Both the position numbers and the translations under genes were made by a program. A model generated the notes under the pieces. It had not been told where the DNA came from and did no database searches. It saw only the letters and a program-made list of their open reading frames with translations. DNA of 63,834 nucleotides, filler included, from Dimargaris cristalligena (Eukaryota): NCBI GenBank assembly GCA_003614675.1. It is 18 parts of 18 records of this genome, joined end to end, with 100 filler letters (N's around TTAATTAATTAA, not from the genome) between each part and the next. Parts side by side here need not be neighbours in the genome. Positions count along the whole stretch, not along the records: positions 46,251 to 49,694 come from ML003942.1; 17 more parts are not named here. One strand, given 5' to 3'. Shown here piece by piece: positions 37,685 to 52,506 of this stretch (its first letter is position 1; each line of letters starts with the position of its first letter).

Positions 37685-38557
37685 TAAGCTGATAAAAGAA
37701 TAAGGAATGTTCTCCTCCGAACCGGGTTAATTGGTATAGATTTATATATATATATTGGACTCGCGGTGACGTAGGATTGCCCGCAATAAAGTTTAACTAA
37801 TGGTTGTAATTATACCTGCCAAATGCCCAATAAGTGGTATAGTAATGGAATGCAGGGATTTGAAGTCGATTCGATGGGGGCATTTTCCATCTATCAGATC
37901 CTACGGGTTGATCCGTGGCCGAAAATTCATTAGTAAGTGTGGCTTCTAATATTTGACCATTGATATGGTGGTGGTACGGTAATCAAAAGAAGGGGAATCT
38001 GATATGGGGGATTTTACAGGTTAAGCGGAGTGGAATGTTAGTTTACAGGTCACGTGTGCTATTCTGCTCCGAAGCCTCAATTATGTGCATTATATTTATA
38101 GGGAGAAGGAGGTCTTAAACGGGAGGAAGAAGCACACCCATCCATCCACCTATACTATAGCCACCTGGCCTTTCTTTACTAATTTGGCGGGGGAAACCCA
38201 CCACCCCTTCCTTAGCCAAAAGACCAATCTTCTCTGCCATATATCTACCTCTCCATACTTCGCGGTTTTGTTTGGACAAGTTGACTGGGAATATAACGCG
38301 TTTCTTACTGGGTGAGGCCGCCCACCCCTCCTTTACAAGCACACGTTCTATCTAGTCGCGCATGCCTTCTTAGACCTTTTTTCCTACTCATTGTTCACCT
38401 ATTCATTCCGACCACCTTCCCTTCAGACTTCGTTGGTTTAAATACACGCATCGGTTTTCTAATTAATTTCCCATAACTCTCCTTATTGAACCTGAACATC
38501 CCTCCTACTCTCCTTCGCTGCATATCCCTCCCCAACCCTCCTCCTCACTCGTACACC

Positions 38558-39124
38558 ATGGATGTCGATCAGCTTAGTAAAATGAAGGTGGCCGAACTCA
38601 AGGAAATCTGCGCCAGTCTGGGTCTCTCCCAGACCGGCAAGAAAGACGACCTGAAGGCCCGCATAGTGGAACATAACGCCCAGAAGGCGGACACACCGGT
38701 GGCCAAAAAAGTCAAGACCGAGCCTGTCAGCGGCGGGGATACGCCGGCCGAAGCAACTGGGAAAAGTGCACCGGCCCCATCGGCGGCTGAGCCTACCACG
38801 GCTACCCAACCCGAGAAGGCTGTTGTTGCTACTGCTGCCTCCAGCGTCCCTCACCCGGCCACCACCACTCCTTCATCGACTACTGCCCCTTCGAATGATG
38901 CTACCTCACCCTCTAAATCAGATACTAGTCCGGCGGCGACGGCTACTAGCCCTGCCCCGGCAGTGGTCGATGCCGAAGAAGAGAGACGGCGTCAACGGGC
39001 GTCGCGGTTTGGAATTACGTACCGTGCCCCTCCGAAAACTACCCCCTCTACCACCACCACCGCTGCCGCCACCAAGCAATCGACGAATGGATCTGGTAGT
39101 TTGACTAAACAGGCGAAGGTTTTG
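38558..39124 (+). CDS. THO1: SAP-domain RNA-binding protein (Tho1/SARNP-like), 3' truncated
   Basis: SAP domain LSKMKVAELKEICASLGLSQTGKKDDLKARI and EEERRRQRASRFG motif. GTAAGT donor at 39125. Confidence 0.8.
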
Positions 39125-39729
39125 GTAAGTATACACTCCGTACATTTATAGTGCCGCAATAGGGNNNNNNNNNNNNNNNNNNNNNNNNNNNNNNNNNNNN
39201 NNNNNNNNTTAATTAATTAANNNNNNNNNNNNNNNNNNNNNNNNNNNNNNNNNNNNNNNNNNNNTTCCTCCTATTTTTTTCGTTCCCAAAACTAATACCA
39301 CGAAATAGAATTGAAAAAAAATGCTTCGGCTTTTTAAAAAAATCAACCTTACCACACAGCGGGGACTACCAGCTAAGCCGAATGCCTCGGTCAACGAAAA
39401 CCAAAGCTTCAACCAGACAAGATTACCGTGTCCTAAGTTCCAGTCGGCATTAACCTTCCCCTCCCTCCTTTACTCAGCCATCCCTTCGCGATTTGCTTTT
39501 CCTGGGCAATCCTCCTATTCCTTACCCTAGTGTATTACTTCGTTAATTGGTCCTTGAAGCTCAGTCTTCACTAAACCCCGAACCCTGTCTGAGTAGTCCC
39601 TTTTTACTCTACCCCAACCAGCCTAGTCCGTATTGATATTTATAGCTTTGTTTCGAACTCAAGCAACCTTATTCTGCTCCCGCAGTTCCCGGAACCTTCG
39701 TCGACTCCGAAAAGCCCCCGCTAATCACA

Positions 39730-42003
39730 ATGGGTAAAGCCAAAAAATCCTTCGCCAAGGCCCGGGTAAACCCAATTGGCGTTCTCACCTCGCAGGCCGC
39801 CGCCACCACCACCACTGACCGGAGTAGCCAACTCTCGCTCTCCGAGCAGTCGTCTTCGGCCGCCAAGGGCAATTCCGACGGCCTCCCCATACTAAAGAAA
39901 CTCGAATCGGCCGATGCGTCGGATCGGACGTGGGCCGCCGCCAGTCTGTCCAATATCTTCATGACCAACCCGGCCTTCCGCCGCAAAATGCTGTCCCTGG
40001 ACCTAGTCGGTCGTTTGGTGGAACGCCTAACCGACGACTCCCTGGAGGTGGTCTGTGAGTGCCTGGGCGCCCTACGCAACCTGGGTACCTTGGCCGATCC
40101 CGGTATTGACGCCCAAATGTTCAAGAAGAACTTGCACGTGGCTATGCGCAACCTTATCGCCAAACTGTCGGGCTACATCGACCAGTACCTTAGTCAGCAG
40201 ATGGACAAGGCAGATAAGCAACTGCCCGTCGATCTAACGGCGAAACTCATGTGGGATTTATCGGAACATATCATGTCTCTGATGCTATCCTTCAGCGAGT
40301 CTTCCCGTACCGGCATGACCAATGTTAACTCCATGGATCCCCTACCTTTCCTTATGTCGTTCCTGAGCACCCCCGATGAGCGTATCCCTCCTGCTTGCCG
40401 TGTTCTGGCGGGCCAGTGCCTCTACACCATCACCGACGAAAATGACGGCTGTACCCGTCGGGTGCGCAGTCGGTCCGACTATATCGAGACCCTGTGCGGC
40501 GTGCTGGAAACCAAGCCCAAGCTGCTCAAGGGGATGCGCGAGCTGCCCGTGTTTGCTGGCGGTGTGCTATACCACGTAGTGACCCTCGACTCCAAATCCC
40601 ACCCCACGACCGCTGAACTGGTCAAGACTCTTCCCACCACGCTATTAGGCGTACTCGCCGACCAACTGCCCAATGAATCGGAGGTCGAGTCCATAATCAA
40701 CAAGGCCGTCAGTCAGGCCCGCCTGATCAACCTCGATGTCACCGTTTTAGCTACTGATAAACGGAGCAAGGCCAGTAGCGCGGCTATCCAGGCTCTGGGT
40801 GAACTAGAAAACTCGGTTATTTCGCTCCAAGTGAATCTTGAATTGCTGGCCAACCTGTTCACTCAGGAACAGGCCAAAACCGAATCGGGCTCCGGTGATT
40901 CCAAGCCTGTGGACCCCAGCCAGGATAATGGCGATGGCGAGGAACTTGCTGGAGACTCGGATGCCGATATGGAGGAGGATGACGACTTGGATGAGGAGGA
41001 TCTGGATGATATGGACCAGTTAGCGGCGGGTGACAACGACGGCGAAGTGGACGAGTCCCTTAGCTCGCGCATTGTCGATTTGTTTGTCAAGCGCGTTCTA
41101 CCCCGTGCTTTAGCCTGGCTTACCACCACTGGCCCGTACATGGCCGCTCTGCCCGTGGAGGCTAGTGAGGTCAATGAAGAAACCGACGCTCTGGCTGCTT
41201 CAACCCTTACCTCCTTCCAACGTGCCCTCCACGTCGTTCAGCTTCGGGCCCTGGGCTGTCTCAACAACTTCTTGTTGACTATGGCCGAGCCCCAGAACCG
41301 GGCCTGGTTTGCTTCCGCGGCCCAAAACGGGGGCCGTGACCTGACCCCCAGCTACTGGACCCAACTGTTTGCCCTTGCTGACGATGTAGCCCAAACTACT
41401 CCCCAACAGGAACGGTTTACGTCCGCGTTGGACTACCCCCGTTTCCAGCAGGAAGCCCTCGATACTATCTTGGGCTGTCTATGGTCGATTGGGCGCGGGT
41501 GCGACGGGCAGGTTCCGGTTAACGGTGCCCAAGTGCAATCCCTATGCCAAACTGTGCTCAATCCAGTCTTCCCCGCTGCCCTCAAAGTCAAGTGCGTGGG
41601 TATTTTGGGCCAAGTCGCCCGGCGTCAGCCCGGTCATATTGCCGAAAACCGTCTCATTGGCGACTTCCTCGTCCATCAGATCATCGACCAAGAGACCCAG
41701 CGGCTCGCTAACCTACCTTCCAATAGATCATCTAGCTATGACCCCACTCCCCTCGAATATATTTTCCAAGCCATTGATGCTATTTACGAAATCTACGGCG
41801 ATGCCGAGTTTGACTACGACCGGCCTGTGTTTGTCGAACAAAATTACCTTAACATCCTGCGGCAGCGGCAGGCCCAGTTGAAGCGGCTCGTCAAGACTGT
41901 AGATAAGCGCACCCATGGCCCTATTCGTAAACGGATCGAGGAGGTGTACATGAGCTATGCGGCCTTCATTGCCTATAAGGACGAGGAACGCAAGCGCAAG
42001 TAA
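39730..42003 (+). CDS. SYO1: Synchronized import protein 1 / HEATR3 (ARM-HEAT Rpl5/Rpl11 adaptor)
   Basis: 757-aa intronless ORF with ARVNPIG, LPILKKL.S.D..DR.WA and LTDDSLEV...GALRNL, a central acidic loop, and C-terminal DAIYEIYGDAEFDYDRPVFV. Confidence 0.88.
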   Translation: MGKAKKSFAKARVNPIGVLTSQAAATTTTDRSSQLSLSEQSSSAAKGNSDGLPILKKLESADASDRTWAAASLSNIFMTNPAFRRKMLSLDLVGRLVERLTDDSLEVVCECLGALRNLGTLADPGIDAQMFKKNLHVAMRNLIAKLSGYIDQYLSQQMDKADKQLPVDLTAKLMWDLSEHIMSLMLSFSESSRTGMTNVNSMDPLPFLMSFLSTPDERIPPACRVLAGQCLYTITDENDGCTRRVRSRSDYIETLCGVLETKPKLLKGMRELPVFAGGVLYHVVTLDSKSHPTTAELVKTLPTTLLGVLADQLPNESEVESIINKAVSQARLINLDVTVLATDKRSKASSAAIQALGELENSVISLQVNLELLANLFTQEQAKTESGSGDSKPVDPSQDNGDGEELAGDSDADMEEDDDLDEEDLDDMDQLAAGDNDGEVDESLSSRIVDLFVKRVLPRALAWLTTTGPYMAALPVEASEVNEETDALAASTLTSFQRALHVVQLRALGCLNNFLLTMAEPQNRAWFASAAQNGGRDLTPSYWTQLFALADDVAQTTPQQERFTSALDYPRFQQEALDTILGCLWSIGRGCDGQVPVNGAQVQSLCQTVLNPVFPAALKVKCVGILGQVARRQPGHIAENRLIGDFLVHQIIDQETQRLANLPSNRSSSYDPTPLEYIFQAIDAIYEIYGDAEFDYDRPVFVEQNYLNILRQRQAQLKRLVKTVDKRTHGPIRKRIEEVYMSYAAFIAYKDEERKRK

Positions 42004-42703
42004 AATAAAAAAGCAGCCTCATTCAGTTTTAGCCTTTTAAGTCTTTTTTTATTTATTACATATATCCACATCATTCATTTTCATGCGGGCTTTCGCACTC
42101 ATCTATATTTGGCCATTCAACCATAATTATAAATAATTTTAATTCAACCCCATCCATGGCTTATATTCTCTGAATAATCATGAACACTTGCGAGCCTAAA
42201 CTACTTCTATTAAGGCACACGCTTGGAAAGGGTACATAATGGCTATTCTATTAGCTGTCAGATATGTAGAACCCAAAAGCCAATAATGCACAAATTGCCC
42301 AATTGGCCCCTTATTCAAAATTTTATGTGGTTCTTTTGTATCCGCTCGACGTACTGTCCAAACGAAACCCAAGCTCGATTGAAAACATTATTTATTACGA
42401 AAACAGGAGTGGGTGCGATATAACGCAGTGGGTCTGTCGTAAATATGATGAATACAAAAGCCCAAGATTAATTTACAGTGTTGTAGAATACCTAGTCAGG
42501 GTCAACTGAAATAAACATCAAAGGGAATGGTCCTCGAAGGTGCAAAACCAAACCTTATTAAAATATTGGTACAATGGGGTGTGGTATAGATTATAGGTTC
42601 CCTNNNNNNNNNNNNNNNNNNNNNNNNNNNNNNNNNNNNNNNNNNNNTTAATTAATTAANNNNNNNNNNNNNNNNNNNNNNNNNNNNNNNNNNNNNNNNN
42701 NNN

Positions 42704-42764
42704 TTTATTATCTATCTTTTCAAATAAAGTTCAGTTTTCAAGGATTTGATTTCAGTTCTTTACA
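42704..42764 (+). repeat. LTR family C 3' end abutting the gypsy protease region
   Basis: AATAAAGTTCAG...TTCTTTACA is followed directly by pol coding sequence. Confidence 0.75.
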
Positions 42765-45700
42765 CCTTCAGACCATGCACAACCCCCAGTACGTACGACT
42801 TGGGGATACCCATCATCTAGAAATTCGTCAACAGGGACAACTACCGCTATGCCTTGGTACCTGGAAGCACCAAGTCCCTGTCCAAATTATGTCTAAAGCC
42901 TCTTACGATATTATCTTGGGACAACCTTGGATTCTAGAGCATACCCCCATTCCCCAGTGGGCTGAATACCGTCTAACTATCCCTAAGGGTAATTACATCC
43001 TCCAGGGCCAGCCTAGTTTTAACCCAGCTAAAGCAGCCATTACTTTAGTAGAGGCTAAGGATATTGAAGAAGACCTGGCCACCGAGTTAGATGCCTACCT
43101 GGTCTTAGTAGATCAAATACTACCAGAGCAAGTCCCAGTCCCTGACACTATCCAACCTATTTTGGATAAGTATCAAGATTCAGTTCTGGGACCCCTCCCT
43201 GGGGGCTTACCACCTGTACGTGCAATAGACCATCGTATTGAGACTGGTACAGAAGCCCCTGTTTACCGCCATCCCTACAAGCTACCCCAAAAGGATCTAC
43301 AGGAATTACGCCAACAACTAGATGAATATTTAGGAAAAGGTTGGATCCGACCAGGTTCCTCACCTTGGGGGGCTCCAGTAATCTTTGTCCCTAAAAAGGA
43401 TGGCTCTCGCCGGATGTGTATTGACTATTGAGCTCTAAATACCAAAACTGTTAAGAACCGGTACCCTCTCCCTCATATTGAGGAGACTTTTGCCCGCCTA
43501 GCTGGAGCCCGGGTATTTTCAAAGATTGACTTAAAATCAGGATATCACCAAATTCGGGTTCATGAGGACCATGTCGGGAAGACTGCTTTTAATACTCGCT
43601 ATGGCCAGTATGAATTTCTAGTATTACCTTTTGGGCTGACCAATGCCCCGGCCACTTTTCAGACCCTTATGAACTCAATCCTGCGGCCTTTCCTAGATAC
43701 CTTTGCCATGGTATACCTAGATGACATTCTCATTTTTAGCCCCGATATGAAATCTCATCAGCACCATTTGGAGCAAGTATTTGCTCTATTACAGGAGCAC
43801 CAGTTATTTGCTAACTTAGCTAAATGCCAGTTTGGCCAGTCCTCTATTGAGTATTTAGGACATATTATCTCTGGCTCAGGCTTGAAAGTTGATCCAGCTA
43901 AAATTCGGGCCATGCAAGAGTTCCCGGTGCCTACAACGGTTAAGGCCCTTCAGTCCTTTCTGGGGCTTACCAATTATTATCGCCGATTCATTGCTAACTA
44001 CTCCCAAATAGTGGCCCCCCTGACTAGTACATTACGGGGCAAACCCAAGGAACTCAATTGGACACCTGAATGCCAGAATGCTTTCCAAACCCTTCGCCAA
44101 CAGTTAACCCAGGCCCCTGTCTTGGTATACCCTAATTATGAGCGGCCATTTTTAGTCCATACTGATGCCTCCATAACTGCATTAGGTGCAGTCCTTATGC
44201 AAGACCATGGTCAGGGACCTCAACCCATTGCCTATGAATCGAAGAAACTTAATCCTACAGAGGCCCGCTACCCTGCCTATGAATTAGAATTATATGCCTT
44301 AGTACATGCTCTCCAAACCTGGCGCCATTACCTGTATTTACACCCATTCACAGTATATACTGATCACCGAGCCTTACAATTCCTAGCCCATACCCGCACC
44401 ATACCACTTCGGGTACATAGGTGGCTGGAGCTACTCCTAGAGTTTGACCCGGAGGTAACCTACCTCCCTGGTAAAAAGCAACTTGTAGCTGATGCCCTAT
44501 CCCGGTGTCACGAGGCCTCTATGCTGGAAACAGGGGAACCTGCCCTAAGTTCGGCCTTACCCTCAGTATTACCTACAGAAATTGAAGCTTCTGTCCGTAA
44601 TATGGTGCAACAACAGCCAGATCAATTCAGTTGGCAGGGCCAACCAGGACGTCTCCACTACCTGGTGCATGGACAAGCAGTCCCCTATATTCCACCTAGC
44701 CAGCAATTGCAAGAAATTCGCCATTATCATGATTCATTTGGTCATGAGGGTCATAAAGCAACCTTGTTTCGAATGGCACTCCGTGTTTGGTGGCCTAATT
44801 TAAAGGCTGCTATTTACTGCTACATCCAAGAATGTCCCCAGTGCCAAGTTGACCGCCGGGCATATCCCTTTATGGCTATTGAACCATCCCCCCCGGCCCC
44901 CGTAGCTAACCCAGGTGACCGATGGGCATTAGATTTTGTAGGTCCACTTCATGGAACCCCTCGGGGAAATCGTTACATTATCACTGCTATGGATCATGCC
45001 ACAGGCTATCCAGTATGCCAGCCTGTTCCTGATGCCTCAGCCTCAGCCCTGGCCCAGTTCCTGTATGAACATATTGTGTGTGTTTTTGGTTTACCTAGGG
45101 AAGTTCTATCAGATCGGGGTACCCCATTTATGAGCCAAGTATTTCAGCAATTTCTACAAGTACAGGGCACTTATCATCGTAAGACGTCAGCCTATCACCC
45201 CCAGACTAATGGCCGACTAGAACGTTTTCATGCAGAACTCAAAGGAGCTATTCGCCGACAGTGTCCTCATCCTCAACGTGACTGGGATATATTTCTTCCT
45301 GCAGTATTACTGGGTATTCGTACCCGTCAAAGTCGTGTTACCCAAGCTGTCCCAGCATATTTGATGTTTGGCATATATCCTCGTATTCCGGGGGATCAAT
45401 TGCTACCCCAATTACCAGAAGCAGAACTCCAAGACCTTCAGATGTTAACCCAGCAACGCCTGCCTGTAGTGCAGCAGAAACGCCAACTAGTTTATGATGG
45501 CCGCCGCCAGTTACATCAGCAAATTCGTGCTAAGTTTTGGCGTAATAACCCCAAGGTCTACCCCTTCTCAGAAGGAGATCATGTTATGGTTCGTGATCCT
45601 ACTGCCAAGAGTCTCCAACCGCGTTGGTTTGGTCCATTTAGAATTCACCAGGTGCTAAATTTCAGTACCTATCAAGTAACTACACTGCGTGGACATGTTC

Positions 45701-45831
45701 TAACTACTCCAATCCACCAATCCCGTATGAAATCAGCAACAGTAAACCCCCAAGGACGTCAGGTTTGGCACCTCCCTCGCAGGTATACTCATGCTTTAAG
45801 GGGGGAGGGTGTTGTGGCCGGGCCTGCTTAA
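42765..45831 (+). mobile_element. Ty3/gypsy pol (partial PR, RT, RNase H, integrase) with one premature stop
   Basis: Motifs YDIILGQPW, SPWGAPVIFVPKKDGSRRMCIDY*, YLDD, TDAS, ADALSR, HHCC, LDFVGP, SDRG, YHPQTNG, WFGPF. TGA at 43429-43431 replaces the expected CGA (Arg). Confidence 0.96.
45798..45809 (+). promoter_or_regulatory. Polypurine tract
   Basis: AAGGGGGGAGGG immediately before TG at 45810. Confidence 0.85.
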
Positions 45832-46147: not shown

Positions 46148-47013
46148 CCTNNNNNNNNNNNNNNNNNNNNNNNNNNNNNNNNNNNNNNNNNNNNTTAATT
46201 AATTAANNNNNNNNNNNNNNNNNNNNNNNNNNNNNNNNNNNNNNNNNNNNGATAAGACTAAAAAAAGAGTTCATGCTAAGTAGTTGTATGGCGTAATTCC
46301 AAGAAGGAATCCACCGGAGACTGGTTATTCCCAAGCCCCATTCATATAGGATTGTCAATAGTATAAAAGTAGTGATATAAAGTAGTCAATCATCATGGGT
46401 TAAAATCACCATTGATTTCGACGACCTATAACTTCGTCAATAATAAACGTAAAAACAAATGGAAGTATGATTTGGAAAGCTGAAGGAAAGGAGAATCGGT
46501 TAGCATAAAGAAATATTATAATAAGTTCAGCCCCGGACTATTCCCATGGGACTGACTCATCAATCATCCGGTGACCTTAAATCCACCCAAAGTATTACTA
46601 CTTTCTGGATTGATAACTGGTACTGGTGCTTACACGACCTTGACCCAGCTGCCCACGGCAGCACATATATCGAGGAAAGGGGGTACTTTCAAGGCCATAT
46701 ACCATAGTCAATATAGGGTGTGATCTGTGGGCCACGTTATCCACAGCTGCTGGACTTGTAGTTGGTAATGATGTAACTTTATCATGCTTACAGACAGTCG
46801 AAGACAAAATATGCGATAGGAATAGCAACAATTATAAGTTTAGGTACAATTTTTTATATTGTGACCTGTTCGTTAAGATGCGTGTAGGATATAAGTATAC
46901 TTCCATCGTAATCAAAAGTCGGAGGGCATTAGTCAATATATATATATAGTCAAATAGCGATTTAAGTTGCCAGGTTTCGCGAATATATGTTCACAATGAT
47001 CACAAGTGGCTGG

Positions 47014-48303
47014 CTACTCCCCATGTTGATTTTTCATGTGCACATTGAGATTACTCTTCCAAGAAAAAGATTTCTGGCAATGCACGCAGTCAAAAGACTT
47101 ATCCCTGCTGTGTATTTGGGCATGGGCAGTGAGTGCGCTTTTGCGCGGAAACATTTTTTGGCAAATATCACAGGAAAAAGTCTTCTCGTTGGAATGGGTT
47201 TGCATATGTTCATTGAGGGTGGATTTCCGTGAAAATGCCTTGCCACAATCAACGCAGGGATAGGGCTTCTCCCCGGTGTGTATTTTGGTGTGACTACGTC
47301 GATGCCCAGATGTTTTAAATGATGAGTCGCATATAGTGCAGGAGAAGGGCTTCTCCCCGGTATGCGTTCGCAAATGGTCATCGAGATTTCTTTGTAGTGC
47401 AAATGATTTGTCGCAAATATTGCAGCTATAGGGCTTCTCCTTAGTGTGGGTTCGTGTATGGACCCGGAGACGGCTGGCAAAGTCAAATACTTTACCACAA
47501 ATTTGGCAGATATGTGGAGTTTCCCTGGTATGATCTAACATATGTTTGTTGAGAGATACCAGCTGTATATACACTTTGTCGCACTTCGTACAGGGATAAG
47601 GCTTCGCTTCGATAGAGGAATTGGCACCAGTTTTGAGTCGTTTCTGGGTCGTGGTTGGGCTGTTACGTTGATCATAGGCGTACAGTTTTCTATCCTTGGG
47701 CGACGCTGGTTGTTTTTTATGACGAAGAGGTCCCGTAGGTCTGGTTTGTGGGTGACGGCGACTCTCGGGATCTAATTCCGCCGCTGCCTTTTCCTGACTC
47801 TCGAGCGGACGGCCTCCGGATGGCGAGGCACTTGCAACGACGGGTTTTTCATCCACATCAGATGAATAGTTGAACAGAGTTGATGTCAAAGTGGCATTAT
47901 CTACCTCACTGCCCGCATCAATTGTGTCGTCGATATCGTTCTCTAGACGGGGAATGCTCCCAAACGGCATGAGTTGATTGTTGAGATAGATAGAGCCAAG
48001 CGCAGCTTCTATTTGGTCGAGCTCCATTATTTCACTCCCATCCATGGTCTGCCTGGCTTGGCCAGTGAATTGTCCGAATTCGTTCCCGTCGAATTGACCT
48101 ATTCGATTAATGGTCTCTGATAATGGTGGGTCCTCGGTGTAAGAACCGGGGACGATACCCATGTTTGTGTCGCCAGTACTGAGCGGGTGGTCATGGGGAT
48201 AGTTGATATAGTCGTCGAAGTTGAATTCGGGATCGTACTCTTCAGAGGCACGGGCTAGGGAGAGAAACGCCAGAATAAAACCGACTGTTTTAACCACCCG
48301 CAT
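47014..48303 (-). CDS. Signal-peptide-bearing C2H2 (Kruppel) zinc-finger protein, 7 fingers, 429 aa
   Basis: The first in-frame ATG gives MRVVKTVGFILAFLSLARA|SEE, then an acidic region, basic patches (RHKK, KRLK) and seven C-x2-C...H-x3/4-H fingers with TGEKP-type linkers. Confidence 0.9.
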   Translation of the reverse strand: MRVVKTVGFILAFLSLARASEEYDPEFNFDDYINYPHDHPLSTGDTNMGIVPGSYTEDPPLSETINRIGQFDGNEFGQFTGQARQTMDGSEIMELDQIEAALGSIYLNNQLMPFGSIPRLENDIDDTIDAGSEVDNATLTSTLFNYSSDVDEKPVVASASPSGGRPLESQEKAAAELDPESRRHPQTRPTGPLRHKKQPASPKDRKLYAYDQRNSPTTTQKRLKTGANSSIEAKPYPCTKCDKVYIQLVSLNKHMLDHTRETPHICQICGKVFDFASRLRVHTRTHTKEKPYSCNICDKSFALQRNLDDHLRTHTGEKPFSCTICDSSFKTSGHRRSHTKIHTGEKPYPCVDCGKAFSRKSTLNEHMQTHSNEKTFSCDICQKMFPRKSALTAHAQIHSRDKSFDCVHCQKSFSWKSNLNVHMKNQHGE

Positions 48304-49859
48304 CTTTGGACTGCTGCTTAAGAGTTCTTGCGGAAAGTGGACGGTAAGGGAGTATCGCTGGAGACAGAAACGGAAGCGGCAAAACAACAACCAAGAAAAC
48401 TACGTTAATTACTAAAACAATCTGTAAATTCGTCGCTAAATGTATGTTGTGGGGCTGAAAAAAAATATAAGTTGATGTAAACGCGAAAATGCTAAACGAT
48501 GGGTGCACTGGGGGGAGACGTGTCATTGCAAAAATAGGGAGGGCTAGTGTATATTTATAAATTTATGGCTTTTATGGGAAGACACATAGGATGGGCACTA
48601 ACGAAAAAATAATACTTACCAGGCACATGGTGCGACGCCTTGTGTAATAAAATCCACTAATGCCATGTCGTTAAGGTCGAGGCCGTGGTTACATTGTTCA
48701 ACAACGCCTGCATGAGTGCAGCTTCACTATTAATTGAATTCACGATGCCTCTATTAATGGTACGCCTTTCCTCTACGGGACCCTTCTCAATCACAGCCGG
48801 GAAAAGGGCGCTGTCGATACCGGCGAGGAGTTATGCGCAAGTGATACAGGTGTGTATCACACATAGCGGACGGAACCACTAAACAGCCAATGAATTGAAC
48901 GAAGTGGCCCTTTTTTTTTTAATGGCGCTGTTTTGACCAGATGGTATACACTAATATATAGACTTATACAACAGGGATTAGGACCACTGTAGGACTATGC
49001 CCTCAAACTGCTACACTTGGGAACGCAAGGGAATAGTGCTACCTTTCAACCAGTGTGGTCTAAGGGCGTTTAGACCAGCCCCCTAGTTGAAAAAAATATA
49101 CGGAATGCTCATTGAGTTAGAGGAGGCATTCCCGGGTGTAGCTGCAGCTATATTGCCACTAATATTCGGTCTGATGCAGTTGAGTTAAGGAATATTAATG
49201 GGGAACTTGTCTCCTTTTCTGGGTGTCCCGGTGCTGAAGAGCGGGTTTCTTCACTACCATGAATAGAGGCCTCGGTCAGGTTATAATGAACATAGGAGGG
49301 GGGTTAGGCATCTTAGCGACCTATACGTCCGAGGCATACAATATACACGGAGATATTGCGACAATTTTTTTATTCAAAACCCCATTTAAAAAAAAATCTA
49401 CTCGAATTCGTAGTGTCGTAAAAGTCAAGTAAAGTAGCGAACAAAATACGGATGTTCCGAGTCAATTAGGGCTCCCCGAAAAATGCCCATAGTGTAATAT
49501 TTGTTGGAATGCATCTCCCCCCGAGTGCCATATACTGTATCGGACATTTGGAGCGATCCTATTGGCCCAAGTCATCTCTAATAAATACTGTCGCAGAGTG
49601 TTGGAAATATGGATTTGATAGTAAACGCAAGTACCTTCTAATACAACTAAAATGTTTTAAAGAAGAGAGAAAGAACCGCAAGGGGCAAGGCTAGNNNNNN
49701 NNNNNNNNNNNNNNNNNNNNNNNNNNNNNNNNNNNNNNTTAATTAATTAANNNNNNNNNNNNNNNNNNNNNNNNNNNNNNNNNNNNNNNNNNNNAGTATT
49801 ACCTATCCTTTGTGATGACTAATATTATTATCTGGGAACTCCCCTCCCTCTCCCTCTGC

Positions 49860-51429: not shown

Positions 51430-52506
51430 TTATTCGCGTTTCTTGGCGGGGATAGCAGTAGCCGAAGTCGCTGGTCGCTCATCGGCATCCGATTCATCCG
51501 AACTACGATTATCGGCGGCCTCCTGGCCACTCACCACCCGTGAAATGACCCGAATGATCAGGACAAACCAGAAGATGATAATGATCTGCAGTAGGGCAAA
51601 CAGGAACAAAAAGAAGTACTGCATGTGGTCCGAATAATAGTATTCGCTCGGGGGGTCAAAAGCGCCGTGGATGATCCGCCGGGAATCGGCGTAGGTACTG
51701 TACACAATGACGCCGAATAAGATGTGCCGAGTGACGATCCAGACCAGCACGAACAGGCCGAACATGAAATCGCATAGGGTTTGGAAACCAATGTAGCGGA
51801 GGACCTTGGCACTGCACAGGAAGATATCGGCGAAATCCATGACACACAGCACGGCATTGCCGACCCGGGTGAAATGGGTGAAATACGATGATATGATCAA
51901 AGCGCACGTTATCACATGGTGGCACAGCATTTGCCAGTAGTCTTTGCGCTGCTCCTCGACCTGCAGGACAAAGAACTGCTGCAGCCAAAATGCCATGGAC
52001 CAGAGATAATACCGCTTGAAGCGACCGGTCATGTAAATGTGCGGGTAATCGATCCAGTATTGCTGGGTGTCGAACCAGTGTGGCAGCTCACTCATCAGGA
52101 GTAGACCCGCGGTCCATGACGAGGCGTAGAATATCACCAACCAAAGCTGTTCGCAGAAGCGGTCGATTTTAAACTTGTTTTTCAGTCCGTTCCAGGCGGC
52201 GAGGGGTTGGAGCACGTAGGTCATGATCGAGGCCCGGATGAGCGTGAAGCCGAGAATGCCGAACAGGACAAAGTAGAAGTCATCCCAGTGGTTGCGGTAC
52301 AGCGGGTCAGTCAACGGGGCCACGGGAGGACTGCCGGCGGGGAGGGCGTGGGAGGCGGCGGCGACGGCATCGGCGGTGGCGGCGGGACTGTAACCAGCGA
52401 GTTCGATGAACTTGGAGGCGCCCGGAACACCCAGCGCATAGCTCAGGAGAATCGCACCAATGAACGTGGCTGATAGCTCGATTTGGTTGTTCACGATGTA
52501 ACTCAT
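51430..52506 (-). CDS. LAG1: Ceramide synthase (TLC domain, LAG1/LAC1 family)
   Basis: Lag1 motif RKDYWQMLCHHVIT...GNAVLCVMDFADIFL, RFCEQLW, and C-terminal DNRSSDE. Likely start MSYIV at 52506. Confidence 0.92.
   Translation of the reverse strand: MSYIVNNQIELSATFIGAILLSYALGVPGASKFIELAGYSPAATADAVAAASHALPAGSPPVAPLTDPLYRNHWDDFYFVLFGILGFTLIRASIMTYVLQPLAAWNGLKNKFKIDRFCEQLWLVIFYASSWTAGLLLMSELPHWFDTQQYWIDYPHIYMTGRFKRYYLWSMAFWLQQFFVLQVEEQRKDYWQMLCHHVITCALIISSYFTHFTRVGNAVLCVMDFADIFLCSAKVLRYIGFQTLCDFMFGLFVLVWIVTRHILFGVIVYSTYADSRRIIHGAFDPPSEYYYSDHMQYFFLFLFALLQIIIIFWFVLIIRVISRVVSGQEAADNRSSDESDADERPATSATAIPAKKRE

Follow-up and report, generated by a model that had tools for sequence, protein, structure and literature searches.

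Is a zinc-finger protein that begins with what looks like a secretion signal a regulator made for another cell's nuclei, or is it an ordinary transcription factor with a misleading N-terminus? The question is raised by a gene in the window, the 63,834-nucleotide stretch of DNA analysed here, which consists of contigs of about 3.4-3.5 kb concatenated via N44-TTAATTAATTAA-N44 linkers. Since the window is a chain of joined contigs, physical linkage to the zinc-finger gene is limited to positions 46251-49694. Within this contig, the gene is the sole ORF longer than 101 amino acids, barring an overlapping frame of 166 amino acids on the same strand. Its features and flanks are the following:

47014..48303, minus strand: complete coding ORF, ATG to TAG, 429 amino acids plus stop
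48247..48303, minus strand: signal-peptide-like segment, residues 1-19 (sequence and a home-made rule)
47734..48246, minus strand: acidic Cys-free region, residues 20-190 (composition and pLDDT)
47599..47733, minus strand: basic NLS-like patch, residues 191-235 (11 K/R vs 3 D/E)
47017..47598, minus strand: seven tandem C2H2 fingers, residues 236-429 (Pfam and motif reading)
46936..47016, minus strand: TAG stop in a finger linker, with a decayed eighth finger in frame behind it (sequence)
46251..46700, no strand: high-copy repeat at one contig end (summed contig depth 10^3-10^5, many diverged contigs)
49470..49694, no strand: high-copy repeat at the opposite contig end (depth 10^3-10^4, many loose ends)

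A seven-finger C2H2 protein on a contig with repeats at both ends

The encoded protein is a C2H2 (Kruppel-type) zinc-finger protein. Pfam recovers zf-C2H2 (PF00096, E 8.2e-38) in seven stretches together with zf-H2C2_2 (PF13465, E 3.7e-40), and 7/7 fingers match C-X2-C-X12-H-X3/4-H, with all 28 zinc ligands present. No frameshift interrupts the 429 codons, and the residues at helix positions -1, 2, 3 and 6 vary between fingers. The linkers read TGEKP twice and TKEKP once, and three are degenerate (TRETP, SNEKT and SRDKS). The original prediction of an intact single-ORF coding region with seven C2H2 fingers and TGEKP-type linkers held. AlphaFold2, given a 7-row alignment (mean pLDDT 48.1), modelled a strand pair plus helix in 6/7 fingers at a pLDDT of about 60-86, with finger 4 (residues 317-345) at pLDDT <50. 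A word-indexed search with the finger array returned 7962 significant candidates out of 8000; 120 were listed, nearly all animal, and among the matches listed the identity to animal Kruppel-type arrays was 32-48%. Behind the TAG stop, the remnant of the eighth finger reads C-X2-C-X12-Y-X3-Y, Tyr replacing both His. This stop is common to all four runs compared, in pieces with 0-1 other letters.

Ahead of the array, residues 20-190 hold 33 D/E vs 9 K/R and no Cys and are probably disordered; the AlphaFold2 pLDDT is <50 across residues 14-231, and the N-terminal 231 residues are unmodelled. The patch that follows is a putative NLS, and the predicted succession of an acidic region and a basic patch is confirmed by these compositions. 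N-x-S/T sequons lie at residues 136, 145 and 228. Searches with residues 1-235 matched 0 Pfam families and returned no usable match in the ESM Atlas by features, while residues 20-235 gave 0 matches in the PDB by sequence at E up to 1.

The contig stretch is present in 5/5 listed sequencing runs (4 samples, 2 studies, one organism label throughout). The ORF is identical in contigs of runs X1, X2 and X4, and run X5 carries a single change, A>G at 47542, which is synonymous (His254) and is the sole difference between runs of the two studies. Summed contig depth over the gene is 25-376, vs 10^3-10^5 in the repeat at 46251..46700; paralogous contigs accumulate over the 5' end of the gene, and high-copy repeats lie on both sides. 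An Rfam search of the contig returned 0 matches. Joints within the gene region were seen at 47376/47752 (2 runs) and at 47386/48153 and 48137/48220 (1 run each), each of the three consisting of one paralogous contig whose sides span 28-56 letters.

The signal-like N-terminus and its start codon

The signal-like segment comprises a basic n-region (R2 and K5), an uncharged 11-residue core at residues 7-17 with a mean Kyte-Doolittle value of 2.55, and a c-region with A-R-A at 17-19 followed by S-E-E, Ala17 and Ala19 preceding Ser20. AlphaFold2 gave a low-confidence helix for residues 2-19. The segment satisfies a signal-like rule that is home-made and is not SignalP; 2 of the 104 ATG-ORFs of at least 60 amino acids in the window pass it, this one included, and 0/120 listed zinc-finger proteins do, these controls being nearly all animal. 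The signal-like start described in the original prediction is therefore present. Because the candidate was picked for its signal-like look, the finding carries a selection bias.

A basic n-region followed by an 11-residue core would normally be captured by SRP. By the positive-inside rule, which is established knowledge, the charge asymmetry around the core predicts a translocated C-terminus, and at 11-12 residues the core would be too short for a stable membrane anchor, which makes cleavage the likelier fate. On these same grounds we rejected a membrane-tethered factor, whose fingers the charges would place in the lumen.

The start of the protein can be drawn in two ways, according to these features upstream of the ATG at 48303:

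48304..48357, minus strand: in-frame open 54 nt (18 codons) from acceptor to ATG; 5' leader, or coding if joined to the mini-exon (sequence)
48358..48619, minus strand: candidate 262-nt intron (GTAAGT donor at 48619-48614, TTAAC at 48408, pyrimidine tract plus CAG)
48552..48559, minus strand: TATAAATA motif in the candidate intron (sequence)
48620..48628, minus strand: candidate 9-nt first coding exon, ATG plus two codons (phase fits the acceptor)

The splice acceptor suspected near 48358 was found again: a pyrimidine tract with CAG ends at 48358, and the exon that would begin at 48357 is open and in phase 0 over the 54 nt before the ATG. Its 18 codons match the residues that precede Met in two annotated relatives, P0003 and P0004, with 13-17 identical. 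The GTAAGT donor is the sole GT[AG][ACT]GT hexamer within 1391 nt upstream, and the candidate 9-nt exon encodes the first three residues of P0003. Both relatives are annotated as starting 21 residues farther upstream, and the mini-exon and acceptor together recreate the same 21-residue extension. Since the mini-exon, the GTAAGT donor and the in-phase acceptor match annotated relatives, the predicted upstream coding exon is plausible. Such an exon, which according to the original prediction had to be excluded as it might make the hydrophobic stretch internal, thus fits the sequence, but the stretch would stay N-terminal and not be buried: whichever candidate start is used, the hydrophobic core is translated among the first 40 residues. 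With the mini-exon, the core would lie at residues 28-38 behind a longer n-region of 26 residues, in a signal of 40 residues, which is unusually long, and the signal would be unburied but weaker.

The TATAAATA motif is a candidate alternative promoter, which could make the ATG at 48303 the first AUG. The scarcity of ATGs in the leader was also considered as evidence on the start and discarded as weak: the 223 nt ahead of the ATG at 48303 contain no ATG, 224 of 5000 shuffles are equally ATG-free, and a further 248-nt ATG-free gap lies upstream.

A Dimargaris family sharing the N-terminal module

Compared with 1,835,955,588 representative proteins, residues 1-235 gave five matches, all annotated as hypothetical proteins from Dimargaris cristalligena, filed under two accession series (RKP and KAJ) and encoded on 5-41 kb contigs, and no match in any other fungus among these 1.84 billion representatives. 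The exact 429-residue protein is absent from a collection of 15 billion proteins. In word-indexed searches with residues 1-235, 0/2545 candidates of 235-751 amino acids scored, and P0003 alone scored among 100 candidates of 30-234 amino acids. The family of the gene is small and lineage-restricted, so far seen only in proteins named Dimargaris cristalligena. The Dimargaritales, the order of this species, are described as mycoparasites forming haustoria (PMC9866270), and with 5/5 relatives of the module named Dimargaris cristalligena, the haustorial mycoparasite supposed as the source is supported.

Conserved blocks of residues 20-190 are common to P0002-P0007, and a gap-free alignment pairs residues 1-188 of P0002 with residues 1-188 of the ORF protein (55% identity). 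The expectation that orthologues keep the signal was borne out in part. A hydrophobic N-terminus is retained at 3/5 family loci; in P0003 and P0004 the core changes are hydrophobic-for-hydrophobic only and small residues remain at -3 and -1, but P0002 has a Gln within the core, which weakens the segment, and fails the home-made rule, and P0005/P0007 and P0006 (2/5 family loci), as annotated, start downstream and are devoid of the signal-like segment. P0002 and P0004 are identical at 80/82 positions, and both differences fall inside the 19-residue segment, a hint of relaxed constraint there.

All four relatives, as annotated, are 116-211 amino acids long, none with more than one finger; in P0003 the break comes after one finger, and P0004 is divergent beyond residue 103. 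The family is multi-copy with some members truncated, although artefacts of annotation or assembly, rather than real truncation, may account for the short relatives. A multi-copy family with truncated members, paralogous contigs and flanking high-copy repeats make an effector-like setting. Endogenous C2H2 factors also form lineage-specific families of fast turnover with truncated copies, the KRAB zinc-finger genes of animals being an example.

Export, rival readings and known systems

Judging from the sequence, entry of the protein into the secretory pathway is possible, at somewhat short of an even chance. The hydrophobic N-terminal segment would be translated and serve as an ER signal, its 11-residue core being bound by SRP. 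The chain would enter the ER with its N-terminus staying cytosolic, because basic residues precede the core and acidic ones come after, and signal peptidase would cleave after Ala19, yielding a mature protein of about 410 residues that would be exported. For an exported acidic region, basic patch and seven-finger array, the likeliest job would be to act on the host as a DNA-binding effector: the host would take it up from the haustorial interface, the basic patch would drive its import into the host nucleus, and its fingers would bind host promoters, as proposed for MoHTR1-3 in rice (see below). Overall, we consider a host-nuclear effector of this kind, with uptake, nuclear import and host targets, unlikely. 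Counting against export, the 28 zinc-ligand Cys and His would have to cross an oxidising ER, and only the first 19 residues set the layout apart from that of an ordinary nuclear activator.

The protein might instead be an endogenous C2H2 transcription factor of the ordinary nuclear kind, from a family that is young and lineage-specific, and act in the parasite's own nuclei. Its N-terminus would then not work as a signal, perhaps because the 21-residue extension leaves it in a poor context, because SRP captures it inefficiently or because translation starts elsewhere in vivo. An acidic region, a basic patch and a C-terminal finger array form the standard activator layout, identity of the array to generic Kruppel-type arrays is 32-48% among the matches listed, and the candidate mini-exon and intron agree with the annotated starts of P0003 and P0004. 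Within the family, Gln is tolerated in the P0002 core, both P0002/P0004 differences are confined to the segment, and two relatives are annotated without it; moreover, false signal-like N-termini occur, as with the 1/103 other ORFs in the window that passes the home-made rule. However, the core is translated from either candidate start within the first 40 residues, where SRP capture would normally be expected, and selection should act against such a segment in a nuclear factor; the core also remains hydrophobic at 3/5 loci, and such a start is found in 0/120 control zinc-finger proteins (as listed, nearly all animal). We give this endogenous factor well under an even chance. A decaying or silent family copy, with an open frame that is unexpressed or being lost (a fate that most of its relatives seem to share) and a signal-like start that serves no current function, would suit the four relatives annotated at 116-211 amino acids and devoid of finger arrays, the break in P0003 after one finger and the divergence of P0004 past residue 103. 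It would also suit the loss of the eighth finger to a linker stop with both His turned to Tyr downstream, the position between high-copy repeats and the missing exact protein in the 15-billion-protein collection. Yet 429 codons are open without a frameshift, 28/28 zinc ligands of the seven fingers are intact, recognition positions vary from finger to finger, runs of the two studies differ at one, synonymous site, and the short relatives may be artefacts of annotation or assembly; we regard a decaying copy as improbable.

Independently of these readings, the contig could derive from a co-cultured host fungus or another contaminant. Host reads occur in Dimargaritales samples (PMC9866270), the contigs of the window span 36% to 57% GC, and the contig itself is just 3.4 kb, with no second gene as an anchor. 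On the other hand, all five relatives are named Dimargaris cristalligena, in two accession series and on contigs of 5-41 kb, the stretch recurs in 5/5 listed runs from 4 samples and 2 studies under one organism label, and no other fungus matched among 1.84 billion representatives. Contamination is very improbable.

Export into host nuclei, if true, would make this the first report of a transcription-factor effector in fungus-on-fungus parasitism and in the early-diverging Zoopagomycota. Secreted-C2H2 host reprogramming would then not be limited to one ascomycete plant pathogen and would extend to an early-diverging mycoparasite, and long programmable finger arrays, beyond single fingers, would serve as effectors. 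Host target sites could be predicted from the finger code and would offer a way into the control that biotrophic mycoparasites exert over their fungal hosts, of whose molecular basis, to our knowledge, almost nothing is known. In its broadest form, this reading has a haustorial mycoparasite exporting a natural multi-finger Kruppel-type array into another fungus's nuclei, a eukaryotic zinc-finger counterpart of TAL effectors, in which a 'signal + acidic + NLS' cassette specific to the lineage is joined to fingers whose recognition residues are gained, lost and diversified; we judge it distinctly unlikely. If not exported, the protein would be an ordinary lineage-specific transcription factor with a misleading N-terminus and a useful warning for secretome pipelines.

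Among known systems, animal Kruppel-type poly-zinc-finger factors share with this protein the tandem C-X2-C-X12-H-X3-H fingers, the TGEKP linkers and the array identity given above, as well as birth-and-death evolution, with a finger lost behind a stop codon. They differ in carrying KRAB, SCAN or no N-terminal domain, with a signal-like start in none of the 120 listed, and in the word-indexed search no animal Kruppel-type factor matched the N-terminal 235 residues of the present protein. TAL effectors of Xanthomonas are modular repeat arrays that are delivered into the host cell and drive transcription, with an acidic activation region and an NLS. Here the likeness is functional only, that of a modular array with one repeat per few bases: TAL effectors have an unrelated fold (33-35-residue repeats vs 28-residue zinc fingers), are bacterial and use type III secretion with no ER signal peptide, whereas the present protein is eukaryotic, has an ER-type signal-like start and shows zinc-finger families only in Pfam, and so is not a TAL effector.

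The feasibility of such export is suggested by an engineered factor that combines an IgK signal, an NLS and a zinc-finger array in one chain: cells exported it through the secretory pathway, it was found in neighbouring cells (neurons) and, still active on DNA, it altered a target gene (PMC8829036). Like the present protein, where the signal peptide is signal-like and the NLS putative, it has a multi-finger C2H2 array, but it is man-made and contains TAT, an uptake peptide, as well as a KRAB repressor; the present protein has no recognisable uptake motif, and its region is acidic rather than repressive. A literature search that covered article text found no paper describing a secreted zinc-finger protein of Dimargaris or of any other zygomycete mycoparasite; PMC9391592 does not use the terms zinc finger, C2H2 or Dimargaris, and 'zinc finger' is likewise absent from the available text of PMC9866270 and PMC13188720.

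The idea of an exported transcription-factor effector is nevertheless not new. MoHTR1-3 of Magnaporthe oryzae combine a signal peptide, an NLS and C2H2, are secreted and are found in rice nuclei, with a proposed mechanism of secretion, host-nucleus entry and host-promoter binding (PMC7672089, PMC10189765). The present protein resembles them in the same order of signal peptide (here signal-like), NLS (here putative) and C-terminal C2H2 and in being species-restricted, whereas the MoHTRs are described in these papers with a single C2H2 domain (MoHTR3 as 'small'), act on a plant and have been demonstrated to be secreted and to enter nuclei. Seven tandem fingers with TGEKP-type linkers, a 170-residue acidic region, an early-diverging fungal lineage and an export that is predicted set the present protein apart. 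Since its N-terminal module matches Dimargaris-named proteins only, common descent with MoHTR1-3 is unlikely, and since secreted C2H2 nuclear effectors are already known, the protein would be at most a multi-finger, fungus-on-fungus variant of them.

Architecture and genomic setting of the zinc-finger protein

The protein is encoded by a single uninterrupted reading frame:
48303 to 47014 (-): zinc-finger ORF, ATG-to-TAG, 429 codons
It belongs to the C2H2 Kruppel-type family. Zinc-finger families are its sole Pfam matches (PF00096, E 8.2e-38 in seven stretches; PF13465, E 3.7e-40), and a motif scan revealed seven C-X2-C-X12-H-X3/4-H fingers at residues 238-427 with every ligand in place. The linkers between fingers read TGEKP exactly in two cases, TKEKP in one and are degenerate in three, while helix positions -1, 2, 3 and 6 carry different residues in every finger. 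The stop-to-stop frame of the gene contains RYSLTVHFPQELLSSSPKMRVVKTVGFILAFLSLARASEEY, whose Met is the ORF start. Behind this Met, basic Arg2 and Lys5 are followed by an uncharged 11-residue core (residues 7-17, mean Kyte-Doolittle hydropathy 2.55), and Ala-Arg-Ala stands directly ahead of Ser20. Residues 20-190 are acidic (33 D/E vs 9 K/R) and free of Cys, a basic stretch follows at residues 191-235 (11 K/R vs 3 D/E), and three N-x-S/T sequons lie at positions 136, 145 and 228. An AlphaFold2 model, built on an alignment of seven rows, has a helix at residues 2-19, pLDDT <50 over residues 14-231 and folded fingers. The ORF, Pfam matches, motif scan, composition and model all agree with the architecture in the original prediction.

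The TAG stop occupies the position of a finger linker's Lys, and the frame runs on into an eighth finger (window 46936-47016, (-)) with Tyr at both His positions; this finger looks like one lost through a nonsense mutation and then decaying. Within the array, a 110-nt repeat (47171-47280 vs 47339-47448, 69% identity) is the only internal DNA repeat, and would fit a finger duplication inside the gene.

About eighteen contigs, each roughly 3.4-3.5 kb and descending in size, make up the window and are joined by N44-TTAATTAATTAA-N44 linkers (for example at 46151-46250 and 49695-49794); genes adjoining in the window are therefore not genomic neighbours. The gene's own contig (46251-49694) holds no second, non-overlapping ORF >101 aa and gave no Rfam match, and no second copy of the gene was found elsewhere in the window. 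Other contigs carry:
38558-39151: SAP-domain gene
39730-42003: SYO1-like gene
42652-45831 (+): Ty3/gypsy-type retrotransposon pol with reverse transcriptase, RNase H, integrase zinc-binding domain and integrase core
51430-52506 (-): TLC-domain (ceramide-synthase-like) gene, 358 aa, single exon
The pol frame is open for 799 codons, with a 259-codon ORF directly upstream. GC content differs widely between contigs, at 49-56% on the SAP-domain and SYO1-like contigs (window 38001-42000) vs ~41% on the zinc-finger contig. The TLC-domain protein has an exact match on record from a 111,064-nt contig, as well as a 204-aa cluster mate on a 3,438-nt contig; at least one better assembly of the organism therefore exists, from which the true neighbours of the zinc-finger gene could be read.

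Relatives of the N-terminal module and the signal-like start

A word-indexed search with the N-terminal module (residues 1-235) gave no match among proteins of 235-751 aa and, among shorter proteins, P0003 as the sole match. A full HMMER pass with the same residues covered 1,835,955,588 representatives, of which five proteins matched.

Proteins matching residues 1-235 in the HMMER pass
P0002: 192 aa, E 4.9e-55, query 1-188, own residues 1-188
P0003: 211 aa, E 9.8e-32, query 1-50, own residues 22-71
P0004: 129 aa, E 4.1e-24, query 1-83, own residues 22-104
P0005: 116 aa, E 1.9e-08, query from residue 58
P0006: 135 aa, E 1.1e-04, query from residue 87

These five and P0007, a cluster mate, are all named 'hypothetical protein [Dimargaris cristalligena]' and fall into two accession series; the exact window protein is absent from the protein collection searched. 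Since P0002 and P0004 are identical at 80/82 residues and P0005 falls into one 90% cluster with P0007, we infer four distinct relatives, which with the window copy would make a family of five loci.

The N-termini of P0003, P0004 and P0002 read MCLRYSLTVHFPQELLRSSPKMRVFKTVGFILAFISLARAS, MQLRYSLTAHFAQKLLRSGPKMRVFKTAGLVLVFLSVARAS and MRVFKTAGLVQVFLSVTRAS, respectively. Every change in the core of P0003 and P0004 is hydrophobic-for-hydrophobic, and the -3 and -1 residues are still small. Both differences between P0002 and P0004 lie inside the 19-residue signal-like segment, and P0005/P0007 and P0006, as annotated, start downstream and lack it. From these alignments, the signal-like start is a family trait, present in three of the five putative loci.

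We gauged chance occurrence with a rule of our own, not SignalP, that demands a -3/-1 site, an n-region of net positive charge and, beginning within the first 15 residues, an uncharged core of >=8 residues with mean hydropathy >=1.9. The window protein passes, P0002 (with a Gln inside its core) fails, and none of the 120 zinc-finger proteins listed, mostly animal controls, passes. With a core of >=10 residues additionally required, 2/104 window ATG-ORFs of >=60 aa pass, counting the zinc-finger ORF, which had been picked for its signal-like look.

A candidate upstream exon

The splice acceptor predicted near 48358 does exist as a motif: CAG behind a pyrimidine tract ends at 48358, and the 54 nt from there to the ATG are open and in phase 0. 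TTAAC lies 50 nt ahead of this acceptor. The hexamer GT[AG][ACT]GT occurs exactly once in the 1391 nt upstream, as GTAAGT at 48619, immediately after an ATG plus two further codons (48628-48620) that are in matching phase. The candidate splice 48619/48358 would add 21 residues (these three and the next eighteen), corresponding to the annotated extensions of P0003 and P0004, with the eighteen-residue part identical to P0003 at 17/18 and to P0004 at 13/18 positions. Four observations nevertheless count against the extension. The P0002/P0004 locus is annotated with it in one accession series and without it in the other; TATAAATA lies within the candidate intron at 48559-48552; the 223 nt preceding the start contain no ATG, although 224/5000 shuffles match this; and an out-of-frame 78-codon ORF (48290-48526, (-)) runs from 48526 across the main ATG. 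Use of the extension is a credible option, a little short of probable. A further 16-codon ORF begins with an ATG at 48666 (-) and stops at the GTAAGT donor; both upstream ATG ORFs are possible uORFs if transcription begins far upstream. With or without the extension, the hydrophobic core falls within the first 40 translated residues; the extension would lengthen the n-region to 26 residues, giving an unusually long signal.

Export, competing readings and known systems

The positive-inside rule governs which side of a hydrophobic core is translocated. If the segment leaves the ribosome first, capture by SRP would be the default; with basic residues ahead of the core and acidic ones behind it, the C-terminal part would be translocated, and because the core is too short for a membrane anchor, cleavage after Ala19 and export would follow. 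An exported acidic region, basic patch and seven fingers would have no obvious extracellular role, and the known use for this layout is the secreted nuclear effector. We give entry into the secretory pathway somewhat less than an even chance, and a role as a host-nuclear effector, argued by analogy, is rather unlikely.

Alternatively, the protein may be an endogenous nuclear factor whose hydrophobic start is unused or masked, a serious contender yet clearly below even. That the gene is a silent or decaying copy is unlikely. The family looks rich in truncated or badly modelled copies, with <=1 finger annotated in 4/4 relatives and P0003 keeping the basic patch and first finger before it breaks. 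Surplus diverged contigs accumulate over 48091-48435 (ORF 5' end and leader). In contigs of four public DNA runs, the window gene is identical in three and differs in the fourth, from a different study, by one synonymous base (47542, His254). Summed depth over the gene in these runs is 25-376, and in all four the contig ends (46251-46700 and 49470-49694) are very high-copy repeats with summed depth of 10^3-10^5. Among the sequencing runs that contain this stretch, none is recorded as RNA. A host-derived contig, a reading independent of the others, is very improbable. PMC9866270 describes Dimargaritales as mycoparasites acting on Mucoromycota and Ascomycota via appressorium and haustorium, and the sole relatives found, all named D. 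cristalligena, are consistent with the haustorial lifestyle originally considered, with the caveat that host reads are noted in such samples (PMC9866270).

The observation is confirmed, and the proposal of a secreted transcription-factor effector stands in part: its architecture and acceptor motif hold and its lifestyle is consistent with the relatives, but an upstream exon is plausible and the signal-like start, as annotated, is missing in two of the five loci. The crux of the proposal lies in expression, secretion and where the protein truly starts. The gene is a good, cheap candidate that does not yet amount to evidence for a new strategy.

A TAL effector identity was rejected, Pfam showing zinc-finger families only. 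Secreted C2H2 transcription factors that act as effectors have already been published as a concept. Supplements aside, we found no literature on such effectors in Dimargaris or other zygomycete mycoparasites. In Magnaporthe oryzae, PMC7672089 reports 20 predicted secreted proteins with DNA-binding domains, half of them C2H2, and two DNA-binding nuclear effectors, MoHTR1 and MoHTR2, that accumulate in the nuclei of rice. Descent from the MoHTR group is unlikely, since the N-terminal module matches only Dimargaris-named proteins. An engineered signal-NLS-finger-array protein was secreted, found and active in neighbouring cells, and finger arrays can thus survive the secretory route (PMC8829036). 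If the effector reading were true, a long finger array rather than a single finger, a fungus as target, an early-diverging lineage and a dedicated N-terminal cassette common to a small family would be new. In MoHTR3, signal peptide, NLS and C2H2 domain follow in like order to the corresponding putative parts of the zinc-finger protein (PMC10189765).
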